A DNA stretch of 16,279 bases from an uncultured Gammaproteobacteria bacterium (GCA_964360965.1 CAYHYM010000012.1:1-16279); one strand, 5' to 3'. Counted from the stretch's first letter, positions 1,216-16,279 are shown. Made by a program: numbers and translations. The notes: generated by a model from the sequence alone, not told the origin.

Positions 1216-2991
1216 ATGAGTTTTTCCAACCAACAGATTGCCAAACTCCTCCGTAATGTAGCTGCAGCTTATACTATCAAAGGAATTGGTAATATTTTTC
1301 AGATCCGTGCTTATGAGAATGCTGCTGATTCAATAGAGCGCTCAACTGTCGAGATTAGGGATTTATGGGAAGAGGGAAAAATGGATGAGGTTCCCGGTTT
1401 AGGAGAAAGCCTGCGTGGCTACCTTCAAGAACTTTTTAAAACCGGCAAGGTAAAGCATTTTGAAAGTGTGGAAAAAGGCCTTCCTAAAGTGGTATTTGAC
1501 CTTTTGGATATTCCCGGGGTTGGTCCAAAAACAGCTTTGGAGATAGCAAACTTCGGCGTAAATAGTATTGATGATCTAAAAAAACAGATTAAATCAGGTA
1601 CTCTGGTTCAAAAAGGATTTTCCGACAAACTGGCAGAAAAAATCATATCAGCAATTGTGGAATTGGGTAGCCGTAATAGAAGAATGCTTCTTCCATATGC
1701 TCAGGCTCAAGCTGATAAAATTTTAATATTTTTGAAAAAAAGCGCAGATGTCATAGAAGCTCACCCTCTGGGTTCTTTAAGAAGAATGTTGGCTACAGTA
1801 GGAGACCTGGATTTTTCAGCCAGCTCCAAAAATCCCCCCAAAGTAATAGAATATTTTTGTAAAATGCCGGGAATTGTCAGAATAATTGATAAGGGAGAAA
1901 ACAAGGCCTCGGTAAGAGTGCAAAGCGGTATTCAGGTCGATTTACTGGTTGGTGGACTTAAGTCATATGGAGCTCTTCTGCAGCATTTCACAGGCTCAAA
2001 GAACCACAATATTAAGTTAAGAACATTTGCTAAAGAAAAAGGATATTCTTTATCAGAGTATGGTCTTAAACGGATGAAAGATGAAAAAATAATTGAGACC
2101 AGGACTGAGGAAGAATTTTATCATTTATTAGGGATGCAGGCTCCTCCGCCAGAGATTAGAGAAGATACAGGTGAAATTGAGGCTGCCCTTCGACAAGCTC
2201 AGGGTAAACCAGGTGGTTTACCGGATTTGGTTAAGTTTAAGGATATAAAAGGGGATTTACATCTTCACTCCAATTATCCCATCAAAAGTCCTTCTCACGG
2301 ACCTGGGGTTGATTCAATTGAGGAAATTGTTAAGAAGGCTCAACAGCTGGGTTATGAATTTGTTGGTATATCTGATCATCCTCCCGGATTCACCACCAGT
2401 AGTAAGAATGAGACTATTGAGTGGGTTCAAAAGAGGACAAAAAGTATTCAAAATATTCAAAAGGGTATAAAAAGTATTCGAGTACTAAATGGACTCGAAA
2501 TAGATATATTAGGAGATGGGAGATTGAGTGTGCCTGATGAGATATTGGCAACTTTAGATTACTGTATAGCCGGAATCCATTCCGGCCATAGAGGTCATAA
2601 GGATGAAATTACCAAAAGATTAGTGGCTGCTTTAAATAATCCTCATGTAGATATTATTTCTCATCCCACCAACAGATTGTTAAACGAGAGAGAATCTTCT
2701 GATGCAGATTGGGAACAAATTTTTAAATTAGCTGCCAAAAACCATAAATTACTGGAGATTAATGCTTATCCTAACAGGCTGGATTTAAGAGATGATCTGG
2801 TTAGAAAAGCGCTGGAATATGGGGGGAAATTTATTATTAATACTGATGCTCACCAGGTTATACAAATGGACAATATGTTGTTTGGAGTATCTGTAGCCCG
2901 TAGGGGCTGGGCACAGGATAAAGATATTGTTAATACTTGGGACTGGACAAAATTTAAAAATTGGTTTAATATAAAAAATGATGTCTCTTAA
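1216..2991 (+). CDS. polX: Family X DNA polymerase with C-terminal PHP phosphoesterase domain (PolX)
   Basis: HhH motifs (IPGVGPKTA), catalytic GDLDF and VDLL aspartates, PHP GDLHLHS and GISDH motifs. ATG 1216 is preferred over the track's TTG 1213. Confidence 0.9.
2186..2222. repeat. GC-rich element in the polX core-PHP linker: ccct/aggg stem around loop tcgacaagctc, then the perfect hairpin ggtaaacc-aggt-ggtttacc
   Basis: Read directly. The 17-mer ccttcgacaagctcagg recurs with one mismatch at 5988-6004 in gatA. In polX it is translated in frame as [10 protein letters not shown]. Confidence 0.65.
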
Positions 2992-3532
2992 TATAATTGT
3001 TATAGCAGTTATAATCATTATAGTTTTATGGCTACTTTTTACCTACAATAGCCTAATAACTCTACGTAATCGCGTCCGTGAAGCTTGGTCACAAATAGAT
3101 GTTCAGTTAAAAAGAAGGTCTTCTTTAATTCCCAATCTGGTAGAGGCGGTTAAAGGTTATGCCAAACATGAAAGAGCTGTATTTAATGAGGTGACCAAAG
3201 CAAGGACAACTCTGGTAAATGCCAAAACCCCTCCTCAAAAAGCTGTTGCTAATGATATGCTAACAGGCGCCTTAAAATCTTTATTTGCTGTAGCAGAGGC
3301 TTATCCTAATCTTCGGGCCTCGGAAAATTTTAAACAGCTTCAAGAAGAATTATCTGACACGGAAACAAAAGTGGCTGCCTCAAGGCAGTTTTATAATACC
3401 AATGTGTTGGATTTAAATAATTCCTTAGAAACAGTTCCCTCTGCCTGGATTGCCAATATGTTTAGTTTTACCAAAGAAGACTTCTTTAAAGCCTCAGAAG
3501 AAGAAAAAAAGGATATTGAAGTTAAATTCTAA
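2978..3532 (+). CDS. lemA: LemA family membrane protein
   Basis: N-terminal TM helix followed by [34 protein letters not shown] and [16 protein letters not shown], typical LemA motifs. Overlaps the polX stop by 14 nt. Confidence 0.85.
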
Positions 3533-3537
3533 CCACT

Positions 3538-4494
3538 ATGGCAACGGTTAATACTGCTTGGGATCATGTTGGATCAAATGTTTTTAAGACCTGGTTGATC
3601 ATGTTAATCTTCAGCCTTTTTACTGTGGCAGTAATTTATATCATAGCTAGAGGGTTTGGATATGGCTCGCCTCGCTTCGCGGGCGAAGCGGGAGAAATAG
3701 GAGGGTTAGGGATAGTAGGTTTTTCCTTGATCATGGCAGGAATAATGAACTTTGTTTCATATTTTTGGTCAGATAAGATTGTACTGGGTGTTTCAGGCGC
3801 AAAACCAATAAAAAAAGTGGATAACCCCGAAGTCTACAGAATAGTGGAAAATTTATGTATTGCTGCAGGTCTGCCCATCCCTAAAATTTATATTATTGAT
3901 GATACTGCCACCAATGCTTTTGCCACAGGCAGGGATCCCAAACATGCGGCTATTGCCTATACCAAAGGTATTTTACAAAAGCTTAACAAACAGGAGCTGG
4001 AGGGAGTTACGGCCCATGAGCTTTCTCATGTGGGAAATAGGGATACTCTGGTGATGGCGGTTGTTTCTGTTTTGGTGGGAACCATAGCCTTACTTTCTGA
4101 TTTCTTTATGCGGTCAATGTGGTATGGAAGCCATGGTGGTGATAGAGATAGCAAAGGAAATACCATGTTTATGGTTATTGCCATTGTGGCTGCCATTTTG
4201 GCTCCAATAATTGCTACTTTAATCCAGCTGGCAGTATCCCGCAGAAGAGAGTTTTTGGCAGATGCCTCAGGAGTACTTTTAACCAGATATCCTCAAGGTT
4301 TGGCTAATGCTTTGCTTAAGATATCCAGCGATCGTGAAGCCTTGGAAGTGGCCAACCGCGGTACAGCACATCTTTATATAGTCAATCCTCTTAAAGGTAA
4401 AGAAGCCAAACAGTGGCTGGCAGGACTTTTTAACACCCATCCTCCGATCGAGACCCGCATCAAAGCCCTCCAGGAAATGGAAGGAAAAATTTAG
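3538..4494 (+). CDS. htpX: Zinc metalloprotease HtpX (peptidase M48)
   Basis: HEXXH motif (AHELSHVGNRD), downstream REFLADASG, four hydrophobic segments, and the conserved lemA-htpX gene pairing. Confidence 0.9.
   Translation: MATVNTAWDHVGSNVFKTWLIMLIFSLFTVAVIYIIARGFGYGSPRFAGEAGEIGGLGIVGFSLIMAGIMNFVSYFWSDKIVLGVSGAKPIKKVDNPEVYRIVENLCIAAGLPIPKIYIIDDTATNAFATGRDPKHAAIAYTKGILQKLNKQELEGVTAHELSHVGNRDTLVMAVVSVLVGTIALLSDFFMRSMWYGSHGGDRDSKGNTMFMVIAIVAAILAPIIATLIQLAVSRRREFLADASGVLLTRYPQGLANALLKISSDREALEVANRGTAHLYIVNPLKGKEAKQWLAGLFNTHPPIETRIKALQEMEGKI
3665..3694. repeat. GC-rich palindromic element inside htpX: gctcgcctcgcttcgcgggcgaagcgggag, with 7-bp stem cgcttcg/cgaagcg and loop cggg
   Basis: 23 of 30 nt are G/C in an AT-rich gene. 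The blocks gctcgcctcgc and ggcgaagcggg are identical to gatC 4811-4821 and 4822-4832. Confidence 0.75.
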
Positions 4495-4519
4495 AGACTC
4501 TCTATCTTGTTTAAACTTC

Positions 4520-4528
4520 TGATATAAT
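4520..4528 (+). promoter_or_regulatory. Perfect extended -10 promoter element TGATATAAT, 6 nt upstream of gatC ATG 4535
   Basis: Exact TGnTATAAT match. Its position predicts a transcription start at or next to the A of the ATG. No Shine-Dalgarno. Confidence 0.4.
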
Positions 4529-4534
4529 TCTAGT

Positions 4535-4879
4535 ATGAGAAAGCCAAAGATTATTGGTTTTTTTGATTCGAAAAAAGTCGCTCGCCTTGCTAATCTGCCA
4601 CTTACTTCTGAAGAAGAAGAGAAATATTCTGAACAGCTTTCTAAGATTTTAGATTACATAGAACAACTCAATAAGGTCGATACCAAAGATGTGGAACCAA
4701 CTTTTAATGTTAGTGGTCAGGCTAATGTAATGAGAAAAGATACTATGGATGTTTGTTTACCCCAAGAAGATGCTTTATCAAACGCCCCACAAAAGAAAAA
4801 TGCCGTGCCTGCTCGCCTCGCGGCGAAGCGGGCCGTCAGGCAGGGATTTTTTGTGACAAAAGGAGTTTTTAAGGTGTAA
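4535..4879 (+). CDS. gatC: Asp/Glu-tRNA(Asn/Gln) amidotransferase subunit C
   Basis: [41 protein letters not shown] plus NAP...GFFVTKGV at the C-terminus. Sits directly upstream of gatA and gatB. Confidence 0.9.
4802..4845. repeat. Composite GC-rich palindromic element inside gatC, translated in frame as [15 protein letters not shown]
   Basis: 35 of 44 nt are G/C. Outer arms tgcctg (4806-4811) and caggca (4837-4842). Flanks match the gatA copy at 5634-5657 and the core matches the htpX copy. Confidence 0.8.
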
Positions 4880-4895
4880 CCTTAACAGACGAGTT

Positions 4896-6317
4896 ATGGA
4901 TATCACCGGCTTAACATTAGCAGAGACTTTGAAAGCTCTTAAGAACAAAGAGTTTTCTCTAGAAGAGCTTAATAAAGCTTATTTTGTGAGGATTGATAAA
5001 TATAATACTGAGCTTAACGCTTATTTAAATATAAACAGAGGCAATTCTAAAATTCCTGCTGCCATAAAAGATGTAATCTCCACTAGGGGAATTCCCACCA
5101 CTGCCGCTTCGAAAATTCTGGAGGGATTTATCCCTCCTTATGATGCCACGGTGATAGGGAAGTTAACAGAACAAGGTATAGGGGTAATTGGTAAAACCAA
5201 CTGTGATGAGTTTGCCATGGGATCATCAGGTGAGAATTCGGCTTTTGGCCCCACAAAAAATCCATGGGATTTAAATAAAGTTCCCGGAGGATCTTCATCC
5301 GGTTCTGCTGCAGCAGTATCTGCTGATCTTTGTGTATTTGCACTTGGATCTGATACCGGAGGTTCTATCAGGCAACCTGCATCTTTATGTGGAATTGTTG
5401 GGTTAAAACCAACTTATGGCAGGGTCTCCAGATACGGCCTGATGGCCATGGCTTCATCTTTAGATCAAATTGGACCAATAACTAAATCTGTGGAGGATGC
5501 AACTCTAGTTTTAGATTGGATATCAGGTTCTGATGGATACGACTCAAATGTGTCCAAAAAGTTTACCTATTCAGAAGATAAATTAAAATCTGGGGTCAAA
5601 GGACTTAAAGTTGGCGTGCCTAAAGAGTATTTTGCCGTGCCTGCCGGCAGGCAGGGAGGGGGTTTGGATCCAAAAATTAAGAAAGTTATTGAAGAGGCAA
5701 TTAAAAAATTGGAAGAATTAGGTGCAGAAATAGTTGAAGTCAGTCTACCACACAGCAAGTATGCTTTGGCTGCTTATTATATTATTGTGCCGTCTGAAGT
5801 TTCTTCTAACATGGCCCGCTATGATGGGATAAGGTTCGGATTAGGGAGAGAAAATATAGGAGCTGAAGTTAAAAGAAGAATCATGCTCGGTACATTTGCG
5901 CTATCTTCCGGATATTATGATGAATACTATACAAAAGCGGCCAGAATAAGAACCTTAGTTAAGCAGGATTTTGAAAAAGCTTTTGATCCTTCGACAGGCT
6001 CAGGAGTAGATGTGATAGTTGGTCCGGTCTCCCCCACCACAGCATGGAATATAGGAGAAAAAATAGATGATCCTTTAACTATGTATCTGCAGGATGTTTA
6101 CACAATTTCTGCTAATTTGGCAGGAATTCCAGGGTTATCTGTACCTTGTGGTTTTGCCCACGCGCCAGACGGCGCAGGGTTATTGCCTGTGGGCCTGCAG
6201 ATTTTGGGAAAACAATGGGACGAAGAGACTATTTTAAGAGTTGGTTATGCTTATGAACAATCAACAGATTGGAGAAAAGAGAAACCTTCCTTGTCATCCC
6301 GTACTTGCCCGCCCTGA
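4896..6317 (+). CDS. gatA: Asp/Glu-tRNA(Asn/Gln) amidotransferase subunit A
   Basis: Amidase signature [11 protein letters not shown] and [13 protein letters not shown]; PVGLQILGK near the C-terminus. Confidence 0.95.
5634..5656. repeat. GC-rich palindrome inside gatA, containing the perfect 16-nt palindrome tgcctgccggcaggca (5638-5653), translated as AVPAGRQG
   Basis: 19 of 23 nt are G/C. gccgtgcctgc and caggcaggga are identical to the flanks of the gatC element and lie in the same reading frame. Confidence 0.8.
5987..6005. repeat. Short GC-rich element inside gatA (tcct/agga stem, loop tcgacaggctc), translated as PSTGSG
   Basis: Same architecture as polX 2186-2204, and the 17-mer matches with one mismatch. 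Confidence 0.55.
6157..6179. repeat. GC-rich hairpin inside gatA (gcgcc-agac-ggcgc flanked by ccc/ggg), translated as AHAPDGAG
   Basis: Read directly. It coincides with extra residues between the conserved PCGF and LPVGLQ motifs. Confidence 0.45.
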
Positions 6318-6342
6318 ACGAGGCCGCAGGGATACGGGATCC
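6293..6342. repeat. GC-rich palindromic element spanning the gatA 3' end (arms atcccgta 6296-6303 and tacgggat 6333-6340; inner ccctg/caggg)
   Basis: Exact 8-bp and 5-bp inverted repeats. The gatA stop TGA (6315-6317) lies inside the element. Confidence 0.7.
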
Positions 6343-6362
6343 ATAGATAATGTTTTTAATTG

Positions 6363-6419
6363 GATTCCCGCTCCTCGAGTCTGAGCGACCTCGGAGTCGA
6401 TGACTTTCGCGGGAATGAC
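6363..6419. repeat. GC-rich palindromic element in the gatA-gatB spacer (arms attcccgc 6364-6371 and gcgggaat 6409-6416, 37-nt interior holding the direct repeat cctcgagtc / cctcggagtc)
   Basis: Exact 8-bp inverted repeat read from the sequence. It ends in the same ...aatgac motif as the element at 7836-7858. Confidence 0.7.
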
Positions 6420-6437
6420 GAAAGGGTAGACAGAATT

Positions 6438-7760
6438 ATGAATAAATATGAACCAGTAATTGGGCTTGAGGTACATGTAGAGTTGAATACCAAAAGTAAG
6501 ATGTTTTGCAGATGCAGCGCTGATTATTTCGGTAAAGAACCAAATACTCATACTTGCCCTGTATGTCTGGGCCTTCCCGGAGCTTTACCTTATATTAATG
6601 AGCAAGCAATAAATGATTGTATAAAAATAGGCCTGGCCTTAAATTGCAAAATTAGTAAAATTTCTCTATTTGAAAGAAAAAATTATTTTTATCCGGATTT
6701 GCCAAAAGGGTATCAGATTTCCCAATACAGATGGCCATTGTGTGTTAATGGCTGGATTAATGTAGAAGGTAAAGATGGTGAAGAAGTAAAGATCAGAATA
6801 AATAGAGCGCATCAGGAAGAGGATACCGGTAAGTTAACTCACAAAGGTGCAGATACACTGATTGATTTTAATAGATCCGGGGTGCCTTTGGTCGAAATAG
6901 TCACTGAACCGGATTTTAGAGATGTAGCAGAAATAAGAGATTATGCCAAGAAGTTGCAACAACTCTTTAGGTATTTAGGGGTCTCCAATGCTGATATGGA
7001 GCGGGGTGACATGAGATTGGAGGCGAACGTTTCCGTTCGTCCTGAAGGTACTGAAGGGCTACCTAACTATAGAGTAGAGCTTAAAAACATAAACTCTTTT
7101 CGGTTTATGGTAGCTGCTGTGGAATATGAAATAAAAAGGCAGACAGAGGCGCATGATGCAGGTGAAAAGCTTAGTCTGGAAACAAGAGGTTGGGATGAGG
7201 ACAAAAAGTGTACATATTTACAAAGAAGTAAAGAAGAAGCTCATGATTACCGCTATTTTCCCGAACCTGATTTACGGGAGATTCGAATTGACACTTCCGA
7301 TGTGGAAAAACTACAGGTTCAATTGCCTGAATTACCCCGGGTAAAGGGTAACAGATTTGAGGAAAAGTATAGTTTATCAAAACAGCAAGCAGTAATTTTA
7401 ACAGAATCAAGGCAATTGGCTGCTTTTTTTGAGGAAGCTGTTAAAGACGGCAAAGATCATGGGCTAGAAGCTAAGACTGTGGCCAATTATATTATTAACA
7501 GGAAAATTAATATTAAAGAAGTTTTACCGGCTCAAGTGGTAATAGAGATAAGGGATAGAGGAATGGGGGTAATTGAGGATTTAGGGGAGTTAGAAAAAAT
7601 GGCAAAAGAGGCTGTGGAGGAAAATCCCAGAGTAGTAGAGGATTACCAAAAGGGAAAAAAAACAGCTATTCAAGCCTTAATTGGATCAGTAATGAAAAAA
7701 TCTCAAGGGAAAGCAGAACCAGAAAAAATAAAAAAAATCTTAGAAAGGTTATTAAAATGA
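6438..7760 (+). CDS. gatB: Asp/Glu-tRNA(Asn/Gln) amidotransferase subunit B
   Basis: MNKYEPVIGLEVHVELNTKSKMFC, CPVCLGLPGALP, KNYFYPDLPKGYQISQ, DYRYFPEPDL. Start moved from the track's TTG 6360 to ATG 6438 because the conserved N-terminus begins there. Confidence 0.92.
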   Translation: MNKYEPVIGLEVHVELNTKSKMFCRCSADYFGKEPNTHTCPVCLGLPGALPYINEQAINDCIKIGLALNCKISKISLFERKNYFYPDLPKGYQISQYRWPLCVNGWINVEGKDGEEVKIRINRAHQEEDTGKLTHKGADTLIDFNRSGVPLVEIVTEPDFRDVAEIRDYAKKLQQLFRYLGVSNADMERGDMRLEANVSVRPEGTEGLPNYRVELKNINSFRFMVAAVEYEIKRQTEAHDAGEKLSLETRGWDEDKKCTYLQRSKEEAHDYRYFPEPDLREIRIDTSDVEKLQVQLPELPRVKGNRFEEKYSLSKQQAVILTESRQLAAFFEEAVKDGKDHGLEAKTVANYIINRKINIKEVLPAQVVIEIRDRGMGVIEDLGELEKMAKEAVEENPRVVEDYQKGKKTAIQALIGSVMKKSQGKAEPEKIKKILERLLK

Positions 7761-7788
7761 CAATTGAAATTAAAAGTAATTTACCCAC

Positions 7789-7819
7789 TTGAAATGCCTC
7801 TTCATAGTGCTGGTAAAAT
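7789..7819 (+). promoter_or_regulatory. Candidate dnaE promoter: -35 TTGAAA (7789-7794), 19-nt spacer, extended -10 TGgTAAAAT (7811-7819)
   Basis: Hexamer matches read from the sequence. The spacer is longer than the optimal 17 nt. Confidence 0.3.
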
Positions 7820-7835
7820 AACATAAGTAAAAGCA

Positions 7836-7858
7836 GTCATTCCGAGCGAAGCAATGAC
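7836..7858. repeat. Hairpin element gtcatt-ccgagcgaagc-aatgac in the dnaE leader
   Basis: Exact 6-bp inverted repeat. The loop gagcgaagc resembles the ggcgaagcg core of the htpX and gatC copies. The right arm creates the decoy ATG at 7854. Confidence 0.6.
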
Positions 7859-7868
7859 AGGAAGAAAT

Positions 7869-10800
7869 ATGGCAAAGTTTGTTCATCTACATGGTCATAG
7901 CGAATACTCTCTTTTAGATGGAATATCCAAGATTTCCAAACTGGTAAAAACCATCAAAGATTTGGGGATGGATGCGCTGGCTTTAACCGATCATGGAGTG
8001 ATGTATGGGGCAATTGAGTTTTATAAAGCCTGCAAGGCATACAACATTAAACCAATTATTGGGGTGGAAATGTATGTAGCCAAAAGATCACATAAGGATA
8101 AAGAAGCAAATGTGGATAATGAACCATATCATTTAACAATTCTGGCCAAAAATTATCAGGGTTATTTAAATTTAATGAAACTTGTTTCAATTTCACACCT
8201 GCAAGGTTATTATTACCGCCCCAGGGTAGATAAAGATCTACTGCGACAATATCATGAAGGTTTAATAGCTTTATCAGGTTGTCCGTCAGGTGAGTTTGTC
8301 AAAAATTTAAATGTTCAAAGCATGAAAGATGCAAGAGGGGTGGCAGAGCAATATTTACAAATATTTGGGGAGGGAAATTATTATTTTGAGCTACAAAACC
8401 ATAATTGGTTAAAACATGCAGAAAATGTTCAGGATCAAGTAATCAAACAAGAATTGGAAAGAATGGGTAAGCTCCAGGATTTAACTTTTAAAACAGTCAA
8501 AGAATTATCCAAAAAAATAGGGATACCAGTGGTTGCCACCAAAGATTTTCATTATATAGAAAAGCAGGATGCCGAAGCTCATGATGCGGTACTTTGTGTC
8601 CAGACAGGAAAGCTGATCACTGACACCAGGAGGTTAAGGATGATTGATACCCCGGAATTTTATGTAAAATCCGCAGAGGAGATGGCGGAAGATTTTGCGG
8701 ACTTGCCGGAAGCTTTAAAAAATACCGTAAAAATAGCGGCTCGAATCAATGTTGAAATAGAGCTGGGGAAAGCCATATTTCCCATCTTTCAAACCCCGGC
8801 AAATATGCCATCCATGGAATATTTAAGAGAGCTGACTTATCAAAAAGCAACAGAAAAAGTTGAGATGACAGAGGAAATAAAAAAAAGATTGGATTATGAG
8901 CTGGATATTATAGAACATAAAAAATATGCGGACTACTTCCTGATTGTGGCGGATTTTATAGATTGGGCTCACCAGAGGGGAATAATCACCAATACCAGAG
9001 GTTCAGCGGCAGGTTCTTTAGTGCTTTATTGTCTGGGAGTGACTAATTTAAGTCCACTGGACTATTTGCTGCCTTTTGAAAGATTTTTAACAAAAGACAG
9101 GCCCACCATGCCTGATATTGATGCGGACCTGGCAGATGACAGAAGAGATGATGTGATCCGTTACCTGATGAGTAAATATGGGGAAGATAAGGTAACTCAC
9201 ATTGTCACTTTTGGAACCATGATGGGCAGGGCAGCCATTCGGGATATAGGGAGAGTTTTAGGGGTATCTTATGGGGAGGTAGATCGAATTGCTAAACTGG
9301 TTCCTCCACCCAAGCAAGGTTTCCATGTACCTTTATCAAAACATATAAGGGAAATACCGGAGTTGACTGATGCATATAAATCCAGTCCCCAATTTAAAAA
9401 AATGCTTGATTTGGCAGTTAAAATAGAAGGGACAATCAGACATGCCTCTGTTCATGCCGCCGGTATTTTAATATCACCGGTGGATATCACAAATTATACT
9501 CCTGTTCAAAAAGAAACCAGTGGAGATAAAGTTGTTTCACAATATGACATGTTTTCTACGGTTGATGAATATGGAGGAATTGGTCTGGTTAAGTTGGATC
9601 TTTTGGGAATAAGAAATTTATCAATATTAGGCAGAGCTGTTGAGTTTGTGAAAAATAATCAGGGAAAAGAAGTTGATATTGAAAAAATTCCTTTTGACGA
9701 TAAGAAAACTTTTGAACTGCTATCAAGGGGAGAAACTATGGGAGTATTTCAGCTTTCCTCCAGCGGTATAACCAGATATTTAATGGATTTAAAACCCACC
9801 AATATCTTTGATATCCAGGCCATGGTGGCTTTATACAGACCAGGACCGCTGAGCGTAATCCCCGAGTATATCTTAAGAAAACACAACCCCAAAAAGATTA
9901 CTTATTTTGATCTAAGAATGAAGGAATATACAGAACAATCACTGGGACTTTTGGTTTATCAGGATGATGTAATTTTAACGGCCACCAATATTGCCGGGTA
10001 CTCCTGGCCGCAAGCGGATAAATTAAGAAAAGCCATGGGGAAGAAAAAACCGGAAGAGATGGTAAAAGAAAAAGATCATTTTGTAGAAGGCTGTGTTGAA
10101 AATGGTATGAAAAGAGAGAAAGCAGAAGAACTTTTTAAGCTGATAGAGACTTTTGCCGCATATGGATTTAATAAAGCGCATGCTGCCTCCTATGCCATAG
10201 TTTCCTATCAAACAGCATATATGAAAGCTAATTTCCCGGTTGAGTATATGGCTGCTGTTATGACTGCTGAATATGGAGACACTGAAAAAATTGCCCAGGC
10301 TATTGAGGAATGTAAAAAGATGGGGATAGTGGTACTACCTCCTGATATCAATTTTTCCGGCATAGGTTTTACTGCGGGAGGGAACATCCGGTTTGGCTTG
10401 TCTGCTATCAAAAATGTGGGAGTATCCGCAATAGAGTCAATTTTAAAAGCAAGGGAGGATGGCGAGTTTAAATCATTATCCGACCTTTGTTCACGGGTAG
10501 ATACCAGACTGGTTAACAGAAAGACTTTGGAAAGTTTAATAAAGGTAGGGGCATTTGATAATTTTTCATCCCGCGCGGCCCAGCTTTTGATTTTGGATTC
10601 CTGTTTGGAACTAAGCCATAAAAATAGCAGGAGGGAAGCTATGGGACAGGTTCAGCTTTTTGAGGATGATACATTTTCCTCTTTGGATTTAAAATTACCT
10701 AATGTGGAGGAAATGCCGCTGGAACAGTTATTGCTTTTTGAATATGAACTGTTGGGTTTTTATTTGCATGAACCTCCCTATTACCAAAAGCTAAAGTTGC

Positions 10801-11367: not shown

Positions 11368-11682
11368 ATGATCTCAAAGAAGATTCAATCCTCAACTATT
11401 CATATAGGTGATCAATTGCGGGTGCATATTCGGGTTAAAGAAGGAGAGAGAACCCGCGTACAAGTTTTTGAAGGTATTTTAATAAGACTTCGGGGTAGGG
11501 GAGAAAATTGTACTTTTACTGTTAGAAAAATTGGTGCTTTGCACATAGGGGTGGAAAGGAGTTGGCCTTTGGATTCAAATTCCATAGTTAAAATTGAAGT
11601 TAAAAGGAAAACTACCGGCGTGAGAAGGTCTAAGCTTTATTATCTGCGTGATCTTATTGGAAAAGAAGCAGTAAGAGTTTAG
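11368..11682 (+). CDS. rplS: 50S ribosomal protein L19
   Basis: [26 protein letters not shown]...[19 protein letters not shown] is the L19 signature region. Confidence 0.93.
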
Positions 11683-15253: not shown

Positions 15254-16279
15254 TTAATCTGTACGAGCGGGACCCGAAATTTCCTTCCAATTCATCCACT
15301 GAGGATCTATCTTAGCTTTCCTTATTGACTCCTGTCCAGCTAAAATTAGCCGGGAAGGAACATGGCCTTTTTTTACCCTTGCTTTAGTTTCTTTAAGCAG
15401 TACCAGAGTTAATTTTTCTTCTACCTCTTCTCTTGGCAAGCTGTCTAAAGGAATTCTATTAATAGCCATTACTCCAACGGGTACATCACCAAAACCTACC
15501 ATCCATCGATAACCTTCCCATACATACGGTCCGTGCACCCAATCTACCCTATGGTCATCATTATTCCTATAGACTCCCCATCGTATTTGATCTGTTACTT
15601 TCTCCCACTTTTCTTCTATTAGACTGGTAGAAATTACATCGAGATACCTTCCCTTATTCATATTCACAGAATGAACGCATACCTGCAGAGATGTTGTTTC
15701 AGTTGTGAGAGCAAACCTATACGAATATCCCCCATGGTGACCTTGCCGGTCTTGCCTTTGGGCTGATTGATAAGAGAATTTTAGTTCAAAAGCTGCTTGT
15801 GGATTATAGTCAGGAGGAAAAGTAGAATCCAAACCACTATAAGCAGATTTTGGATCAGTAGAAATCTCACGAATTACACCTTTTCCCTCCCAAACGGTAG
15901 CATTTATATATCCTAGCCTATCACGTATTCTGAGATCTTCTGCAATTTGTTTTATTTCCCCAAGTGTTTGTAGTCTACCCTCTATGAGTTGACGCCCTTG
16001 TTGCTCTCTAGCTTCTTTTTCTCTCTTACTTCTTTCTACCAATTGTTTCTCCCGTTCAATCCGCTGAAGTTCTGTTTTTCTTGCCATATCTAATTCATCC
16101 TCTATTCCTTTATTGAGTCTGATAGCAAAATCTGATAGCTCGGGTGGAAGTTGCACAATCTTTGATGGTGGTTGTTGAGTTGGTTGTATCTCAGGTGGTA
16201 ACCCGAAGAATCTATTTAAAAATCCCAAAAAACCACTTTTAGGTTCCTGTGGAGGAAGTGGTTCTCCTGTGCCACTATT
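15254..16279 (-). CDS. Hypothetical protein: proline-rich N-terminal region, charged coiled-coil-like segment, Trp-rich C-terminal domain; probably 5'-partial
   Basis: A 324-codon ORF in AT-rich DNA. The first in-window start candidate is TTG at 16228 with no convincing Shine-Dalgarno, and the frame stays open to the window edge. I recognise no family motif. Confidence 0.6.
   Translation of the reverse strand, partial: NSGTGEPLPPQEPKSGFLGFLNRFFGLPPEIQPTQQPPSKIVQLPPELSDFAIRLNKGIEDELDMARKTELQRIEREKQLVERSKREKEAREQQGRQLIEGRLQTLGEIKQIAEDLRIRDRLGYINATVWEGKGVIREISTDPKSAYSGLDSTFPPDYNPQAAFELKFSYQSAQRQDRQGHHGGYSYRFALTTETTSLQVCVHSVNMNKGRYLDVISTSLIEEKWEKVTDQIRWGVYRNNDDHRVDWVHGPYVWEGYRWMVGFGDVPVGVMAINRIPLDSLPREEVEEKLTLVLLKETKARVKKGHVPSRLILAGQESIRKAKIDPQWMNWKEISGPARTD

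Follow-up and report, generated by a model that had tools for sequence, protein, structure and literature searches.

Miniature GC-rich repeats inserted in frame in essential genes of a Candidatus Daviesbacteria genome, and their possible relation to Ssn nucleases

SRM/NTS repeats are hairpin-forming inverted repeats of 20-50 nt with a conserved, oriented GTCAY flank (Chenal 2025, PMC11893778). They can be retrieved with the published search string HGTCWYN(0-2)YYVSBRHN(0-5)WNVSBRGN(0-2)RNCYNB (PMC11893778). Ssn, a GIY-YIG nuclease of about 94 aa with a single domain, binds SRMs in single-stranded form and cuts the DNA just upstream; SRMs border 71% of the ssn homologues, and the layout, GTCAY> gene <RTGAC, resembles that of insertion sequences (PMC11893778). 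Ssn acts on single-stranded DNA (ssDNA) rather than RNA, and both ssDNA cleavage and an effect on transformation have been demonstrated (PMC11893778). SRM-rich genera include Rickettsia, Wolbachia and Sphingomonas, and NTS copies inside genes are rare, amounting to 2% in N. meningitidis (PMC11893778). Here we describe nine short GC-rich islands in a stretch of 16,279 nt (CAYHYM010000012.1 of assembly GCA_964360965.1; hereafter the window) from Candidatus Daviesbacteria, a lineage of the Microgenomates within the Candidate Phyla Radiation (CPR), sampled from Hainich groundwater. The islands are genuine: miniature repeats have inserted there in frame, and several of them resemble SRM/NTS.

Other repeat systems also bear comparison. 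The islands share with the Rickettsia palindromic elements (RPEs) that in-frame repeats are tolerated in unrelated housekeeping genes of a reduced genome (PMC10969869). RPEs, however, measure about 100-150 bp and encode a conserved peptide, whereas the elements studied here are 15-42 nt long (composites up to 59 nt) and are read in various frames. Hence, the RPE parallel drawn in an initial annotation of the window holds insofar as short GC-rich repeats are tolerated in frame in essential genes, in an RPE- or REP-like manner, but RPEs differ in size and serve as an analogy only. REP/BIME elements and REPIN-RAYT systems are likewise short hairpins that form inverted doublets, insert into loops and surround a domesticated nuclease gene. 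In contrast to the islands, they are marked by GTAG rather than GTCAY, their enzyme has an HUH Y1 fold instead of a GIY-YIG fold, and REPs by definition lie outside genes. In the compact, AT-rich mitochondrial genomes of yeast and other fungi, GC clusters (e.g., GC42) are likewise GC-rich palindromes, about 20-50 nt long; they occur sporadically, merge or nest to give new elements, and are exchanged horizontally (PMC4478555). Unlike the islands, these clusters belong to an organelle, are found mostly between genes, use AG as target site and lack a known partner enzyme. Finally, Elhai et al. are said to have described, in 2008, the small dispersed repeats (SDR) of Nostoc and Anabaena, reportedly mobile elements of 21-27 nt with hairpin potential that nest in themselves and are perhaps the smallest mobile elements known. 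SDR are limited to a cyanobacterial subgroup and differ in sequence from the islands, and we know of no reported link to GIY-YIG proteins.

The islands contain 79-83% G+C, in a window with a G+C content of 38.8%. Seven GC islands scored 12 or more, compared with 0.87 in first-order Markov simulations (maximum 4 in 300), an 8-fold excess. Five of these seven lie within 3664-6331, while the other two correspond to a tRNA and a conserved DnaE motif. Coding sequence is touched by seven of the nine islands, six of which are in frame inside essential genes. Every sequence block that the initial annotation had quoted as shared between islands was found in its place: CCTTCGACARGCTCAGG at 2187-2203 and 5988-6004 (2 matches, 0.01 expected), GCCGTGCCTGC...CAGGCAGGGA at 4802-4846 and 5634-5657, and GCTCGCCTCGC...GGCGAAGCGGG at 3665-3692 and 4811-4832 (0 expected for the latter two). 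The islands had been taken for one palindromic family. The shared blocks are genuine, but they arise because the gatC island is a composite of a gatA-type (A) and an htpX-type (C) element, and the islands comprise at least five sequence families. The palindromic character also applied to part of the set. The A, C, G, E and F elements and the gatC composite fold (-15 to -28 kcal/mol, z -1.0 to -3.4) and D folds weakly, whereas the two B-type copies of TTCGACARGCTCA show no significant hairpin (-6.8 and -4.5 kcal/mol, z about 0).

Insert boundaries were defined by codon-by-codon alignment with four syntenic Daviesbacteria loci (L083, L084, L086 and L087), and the solved GatA structure of Aquifex (3H0L) served as structural reference for the GatA sites. 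Coordinates refer to the plus strand unless indicated otherwise. The linker between the thumb and PHP domains of PolX carries a B-type unit, CC-TTCGACAAGCTCA-GG (2186-2204), which adds a net 18 nt (CCTTCGACAAGCTCAGGG) in the codon alignment with the four syntenic genomes and reads LRQAQG. Between the two N-terminal hydrophobic segments of HtpX lies a C-type palindrome of 27 nt (3664-3690; -14.9 kcal/mol), which reads GSPRFAGEA and is absent from all four syntenic orthologues; the same C-type sequence, GCTCGCCTCGC..GGCGAAGCGGG, occurs in L004 at another htpX site and as an intergenic copy. The insert of 42 nt near the C-terminus of GatC (4802-4843; -26.2 kcal/mol) is composite, with the arms of an A-type palindrome at 4802-4812 and 4834-4843, and a C-type element of 21 nt (4813-4833) placed one base from the A-type centre.

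GatA contains three internal inserts. The first is an A-type palindrome of 21 nt (5634-5654; -18.4 kcal/mol, z -2.6) that reads AVPAGRQ at a position gapped in 3H0L; its near-perfect 20-nt palindrome, CCTGCCTGCCGGCAGGCAGG, is also present in polX of L084. The second is a B-type unit (5986-6004), which adds a net 15 nt according to the syntenic alignment and 3H0L, and reads PSTGSG in a frame that differs from the polX copy. This unit was present in 11-14 of 120 orthologues, scattered on the tree. The third is a G-type hairpin, GCGCC-AGAC-GGCGC (6156-6180; -15.2 kcal/mol, z -3.4), which adds a net 18 nt in a beta-hairpin turn and reads HAPDGAG; other orthologues hold different elements at this site, the B-type among them.

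The remaining three islands (F, E and D) are all located at gene ends and begin with GTCAT, and each has the oriented 5' flank H-GTC-W-Y (F at 6293, E on the minus strand at 6419, D at 7836). The F-type element, cttGTCAT-CCCGTA-[29-nt loop insert]-TACGGG-ATCCAT (6293-6344; -21.6 kcal/mol), is SRM-like, and its outer flanks are the same as in the L005 SRM cttGTCATCCCTGCGAAAGCAGGGATCCAG. As had been proposed, it supplies the C-terminus of GatA, i.e., the last 7 codons and the stop codon (6315-6317), and thereby makes the protein 7 residues longer. The E-type element on the minus strand (6362-6420; -28 kcal/mol, z -3.1) resembles a canonical NTS/SRM with a nested element of 33 nt (6372-6404) in its loop. 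F (plus strand) and E (minus strand) make up an inverted doublet without a gene, GTCAT>...<ATGAC, whose two members are 17 nt apart. The D-type element GTCATTCCGAGCGAAGCAATGAC (7836-7858), as read from the window sequence, lies just upstream of the dnaE ribosome-binding site.

In relatives gatA and gatB overlap or lie about 25 nt apart, whereas in the window 120 nt of nested hairpins (6318-6437) intervene, and hence translational coupling, if any, has probably been lost. GatB could start at a TTG inside the element (6360), but the ATG at 6438, following AAAGGG, is the likelier start. The 3' end of the D-type element (AATGAC) provides an in-frame ATG at 7854, ahead of the likely dnaE start at 7869 (MAKFVHLH), so that ORF (open reading frame) callers may add five spurious residues to DnaE. 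Replicate assemblies from the same well differ at five positions in 9.7 kb (3292, 6334, 6360, 6405 and 6407), four of which are inside the F/E pair. They could stem from strain heterogeneity, from hypermutable hairpins or, with coverage at roughly 5x, from errors.

Several observations identify the intragenic islands as lineage-specific insertions. Orthologues with 70-80% identity lack the insert residues, and Aquifex 3H0L is gapped at the three internal GatA sites. None of the islands introduces a stop codon or a frameshift. All six intragenic insert lengths are divisible by three and stop-free, which would occur by chance with a probability of (1/3)^6, about 0.001. This points to translation of the elements under selection for frame, and speaks against bypass or splicing. 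The 21-nt A element in gatA is identical in the window, L083 and L084 and absent from L086 and L087, while the codons for identical residues are only 50-52% identical. Furthermore, the same element types recur at other sites in relatives (L004, L084, L087). The B-type sequence CC-TTCGACARGCTCA-GG reads LRQAQG in PolX, PSTGSG at GatA aa 366, and PSTSSGQAR at a different GatA site in L087 (aa 421-427, shared with P0107); because the reading frame varies among copies, it is not a selected peptide.

Of 121 GatA orthologues (70-80% identity), 36 had one or more internal inserts. The insert residues consist for 47% of G, A, P and R, compared with 26% in the remaining protein. Judged against the syntenic genomes and Aquifex GatA, all six intragenic inserts of the window are located in loops or linkers, and a low-confidence AlphaFold model of GatA (mean pLDDT 55) places the GatA inserts in coil between secondary-structure elements. 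Nesting was observed in the gatC island and in the loops of E and F, and L417 and L448 hold a different insert at the E-type loop position. Some of the sites are insertion hot spots. Gains and losses of GatA inserts were mapped on a neighbour-joining tree; this mapping is not decisive, because the tree is star-like and poorly resolved. Relatives also carry a more AT-rich palindromic family, TCTAGAGTC...GACTCTAGA, which reads SRVESQESR or TRVKSLES in frame (L087 around 5600 in polX and 11380-11440 at the gatA C-terminus; proteins P0016 and P0026). Hence, the phenomenon is not restricted to GC-rich elements.

The islands differ in how closely they approach the Ssn-SRM system. Among described systems it is the one most similar to them. 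The shared features are GC-rich hairpins of 20-50 nt, for three islands with the oriented GTCAY flank, an E-type element nearly identical to NTS (CGTCATTCCCGCGAAAGCGGGAATCC), inverted copies flanking a single-domain GIY-YIG gene of roughly 90 aa, and a wide phylogenetic spread. After in silico deletion of the 33-nt insert, which is our own reconstruction, the minus strand of E reads CGTCATTCCCGCGAAAGCGGGAATCCAA and is identical at 27 of 28 positions to the SRM of L454, itself retrieved by the published string. The E-type consensus among the matches listed, CTGGATTCCCGCTTTCGCGGGAATGAC, corresponds to the Neisseria NTS/dRS3 repeat in reverse complement. The D-type 17-mer occurred in 15 viral-contig stretches, with the consensus continuation GAGGAATCTC. 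Judged from these sequences, membership of D, E and F, i.e., three islands, in the Ssn/SRM system appears well supported.

Complete cassettes are present in relatives. In the Daviesbacteria-like locus L005, gatC and gatA are separated by an inserted cassette of about 360 nt (1840-2198), in which a GTCAT-SRM is followed by an Ssn-type gene and then by a second SRM in inverted orientation; the same site is empty in the window, L083, L084, L086 and L087. A second, similar SRM-ssn-SRM cassette occurs in the Daviesbacteria-like locus L006, and canonical GTCAT-SRMs lie in frame within gatA of L003 and L005. NTS-like repeats also stand on both sides of the GIY-YIG genes of L454 and L418. In the window itself, the only inverted SRM-type copies are those of the gene-less F + E doublet, whose topology is that of the cassettes.

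The B-type sequence was by far not confined to this lineage. Its 17-mer had at least 120 matches in GTDB genomes of 31-72% G+C, and the matches listed came from Bacteroidota, Cyanobacteria, Chloroflexota, Proteobacteria, Actinobacteria, Nitrospirota, Planctomycetota, Acidobacteriota, Verrucomicrobiota, Eremiobacterota and several CPR groups. The flanks of the matches listed are non-random, with complementary bases beside CC/GG and, downstream, GCGAACGG, GTGAC or ATGAC; the units are commonly bounded by GGGTGAC or GGATGAC. Covariation in the core stem was clear at the third pair only (Watson-Crick 0.80, compared with 0.47 when shuffled), and the population is heterogeneous beyond it. In low-GC genomes, 5 of 33 copies lie inside long ORFs that make up 81% of the sequence, which implies that B-type elements are mostly intergenic elsewhere. 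They often occur in tandem arrays (periods 24-37 nt) or as partial internal duplications in various bacteria (L185, L140, L382, L360 and L285), suggesting slippage besides dispersal.

The B-type elements are associated with GIY-YIG genes as well. In L360 (Eremiobacterota), a GIY-YIG gene lies between inverted B-type arrays, GTCAYCCTGAGCTTGTCGAAGGG ... CCCTTCGACAAGCTCAGGGTGAC. Among 120 homologues of the L360 protein, 41 end in B-encoded peptides (for instance PSTSSG*, ALRQAQ or PFDKLRVT), with the GGGTGAC flank providing the stop codon, and one homologue also begins with the reverse-strand peptide LSLSKG. Through this association elsewhere, the Ssn/SRM link of the two B-type islands has moderate support.

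For the four islands of the A, C and G types, including the gatC composite, a link to Ssn/SRM would be a plausible extension, which we hold weakly. The A-type element occurred in 62 viral-contig stretches, mostly as a perfect palindrome, and the C-type element in three stretches. In L266 (505-843; viral contig IMGVR_UViG_3300035537_000177), a GIY-YIG gene is preceded, at a distance of 22 nt, by an A-type palindrome located inside the D-loop of a partial tRNA-like copy. The gene itself stands between this partial and a second, longer tRNA-like 5' segment (ttccccggtagctcagttggta ... gagcggttggct); ARAGORN calls no tRNA in L266. The arrangement looks like an integration that duplicated its tRNA target. 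A search of viral contigs with the GIY-YIG alignment matched one already known locus and no other.

The window also encodes a GIY-YIG protein of its own, an Ssn-like single-domain protein of 87 aa (147-410) that matched Pfam PF01541 only and no NCBIfam family. Absent from the initial annotation, it is a candidate partner enzyme of the repeats. It is 33-36% identical (E 1e-8 to 1e-13) to the SRM-flanked proteins of L454, L418 and L005 and to the B-type-flanked protein of L360, and also 33-36% identical to the L266 protein. The Ssn nuclease family itself is catalogued as CDD cd10448. The window protein belongs to a subfamily apart from the canonical group, whose members share 43-58% identity. 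Its own identity across Davies-, Levy-, Gottesman-, Roizman- and Cerribacteria (Microgenomates) is 67-87%, and the whole pattern seems to fit a domesticated gene better than a homing endonuclease. A hairpin, CCACGTTCA...TGAACGTGG (12-42; -10.2 kcal/mol, z -1.8), with a partial second copy at 97-113, separates the gene from the 3' end of a tRNA-Asp, which is cut by the window edge (1-13) and is identical to the 3' end of the tRNA-Asp called by ARAGORN in L083 and L084. The same order of tRNA-Asp, ACGTTCA..TGAACGT hairpin and GIY-YIG gene was found in L083 (2917-3315), where the hairpin loop contains a nested palindrome, and in L084 (4318-4688). Many homologues have N-terminal extensions, MNVAR or MNVAC, that are read from the hairpin.

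On balance, we lean towards the view that the islands are copies or fragments of several families of miniature GC-rich repeats that belong to SRM/NTS or are their close kin. SRM-ssn cassettes and gene-less derivatives would then move around the genome in this Daviesbacteria lineage. The moving repeats would often insert into the loop of an existing hairpin and, in a genome nearly free of spacers, many copies would fall in coding sequence. The survivors would be those with a length that is a multiple of three and free of stops, located in a surface loop or linker, and translated as peptides rich in G, A, P and R. A GIY-YIG nuclease may drive the spread of these repeats, and the A, C and G types may be part of an SRM-type system. 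Compared with the published system, the host is a CPR bacterium, and the main text of PMC11893778 names no Patescibacteria or 'Candidatus' taxa. Moreover, most islands touch coding sequence, in contrast to 2% intragenic NTS, the A, B, C and G families do not fit the published string, and the window has loop nesting, a gene-less doublet and a GIY-YIG protein of a sister subfamily.

Several points weigh against this interpretation. To our knowledge, transposition by any Ssn nuclease has never been shown. The published SRM string has no matches in the window as it stands, compared with four in L454 and two in L418. A GTCAY flank is missing from each of the six intragenic copies, which are of the A, B, C and G types; the A-type is tied to a GIY-YIG gene at L266 only, and the C and G types at no locus. 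A canonical Ssn-type gene was not seen in the 16-kb window. The GIY-YIG gene that is present belongs to a separate subfamily, is very conserved, is syntenic beside tRNA-Asp and lacks flanking GC-rich repeats, and may therefore do something else. On a poorly resolved tree, the scattered GatA inserts might have come about by recombination or by precise loss instead of repeated insertion. None of the inserts had a definable target-site duplication. Three A/C-type insertions are located at T|GGA or G|GGT glycine codons, a placement that could result from targeting or from selection.

A rather unlikely explanation is that the islands are palindromes without an enzyme, functionally unrelated to GIY-YIG proteins. 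They would propagate through recombination or gene conversion, or when templates are switched at hairpins, as has been suggested for GC clusters in yeast mitochondria. This explanation would suit the A, C and G types, which are bare palindromes with no conserved flank, as well as the AT-rich genome, the lack of target-site duplications and the patchy distribution, and the nesting and merging resemble the merger of GC clusters (PMC4478555). It does not account for the SRM hallmarks of three islands, for the complete SRM-ssn-SRM cassettes in the same operon of relatives, or for the B-type elements, which abut a GIY-YIG subfamily in 34% of its members.

It appears improbable that the elements are kept mainly for a role at the RNA level, in the stability or processing of operon mRNA or in ribosome pausing, with mobility as their origin only. 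REP elements stabilise upstream mRNA, and stable hairpins (-15 to -28 kcal/mol) are indeed located between gatA and gatB, where relatives have little or no spacer, and upstream of dnaE. However, we found no covariation or positional conservation across genomes, the presence of the elements is patchy, the B-type units do not fold, and Ssn acts on ssDNA.

More doubtful still are REP/REPIN-type elements moved by a RAYT, a Y1 transposase of the IS200/IS605 family. The hairpin repeats, their nesting in loops and the inverted F + E doublet are reminiscent of REPINs (PMC3116915), but the 5' tetranucleotide GTAG is lacking and the flank is GTCAY instead. Furthermore, neither the window nor about 150 kb from syntenic loci of Daviesbacteria contained a Y1_Tnp gene call, and the genes flanked by these repeats are GIY-YIG genes.

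Two last possibilities are hardly credible. Ordinary lineage-specific loops selected for their peptide would be in frame and in loops or linkers, as the inserts are, but they are strongly disfavoured by one DNA motif being read as LRQAQG, PSTGSG and FDKLR, by its recurrence between genes, in unrelated genes and in other phyla, and by elements that are nucleotide-identical while their flanks show saturated synonymous divergence. GC-rich inserts in AT-rich mitochondrial genes of Magnusiomyces are bypassed, but byp inserts are unconstrained in frame and often contain stops, unlike the six intragenic inserts here, so that removal by byp-like translational bypass or as intron- or intein-like elements is very unlikely, as is an assembly artefact, given that two independent assemblies have the same sequence and the motifs are present in isolate genomes and many separate studies.

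The remaining gene content gives the genomic context. The gene assignments of the initial annotation (PolX, LemA, HtpX, GatC, GatA and GatB) are correct. The window starts with the 3' end of tRNA-Asp, the GIY-YIG ORF (147-410) and FtsJ (minus strand), continues with PolX, LemA, HtpX, GatC, GatA and GatB, and ends with DnaE, L19, RNase HII, YraN, PurQ, PurL and a tRNA. Rfam, at gathering and E-value thresholds, gave tRNAs only, for the window as for 16 loci with full-length B-type elements. An ORF of 324 aa on the minus strand (15254-16228) has no match in Pfam or NCBIfam. The spacers between LemA, HtpX and GatC are prone to insertion in relatives, with a HicAB toxin-antitoxin pair in L084 (7915-8417), and an Obg-like GTPase and a small ORF in L087 (8240-9590). 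The best GatA homologues are annotated as Daviesbacteria, a metagenome scan by GatA retrieved four close relatives only, and two replicate ENA assemblies encode the GatA protein identically. In published full texts nothing relevant was found for the element sequences or peptides (FDKLR, FRGND, PAGRQ and others), nor did the published literature yield anything on palindromic in-frame repeats in CPR bacteria.

A broader and more tentative idea, possible but short of probable, is that small GIY-YIG nucleases and hairpin repeats constitute a nuclease-repeat super-family that spans bacterial phyla and far exceeds the SRM definition as published, in which CC-TTCGACAAGCTCA-GG and its own GIY-YIG subfamily form one pair. 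In CPR bacteria, such repeats would be a major ongoing source of new loops in essential genes, with an insert in about 30% of Daviesbacteria GatA. They might even act as ssDNA 'restriction marks' that control the replacement of core genes during natural transformation, a process thought to be important to CPR cells.

If the islands do belong with SRM/NTS, the reach of the Ssn/SRM system would include the Candidate Phyla Radiation as well as additional repeat families, and such repeats would be tolerated in frame inside translation and replication genes, not just beside genes. They would then form a bacterial parallel to RPEs and to the GC clusters of mitochondria, one that comes with a candidate enzyme. 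The E, F, D and B-type elements would offer concrete substrates, alongside the proteins, for assays of new ssDNA-nuclease specificities. Moreover, the insertions would provide a measurable route by which selfish DNA makes protein loops in minimal genomes.

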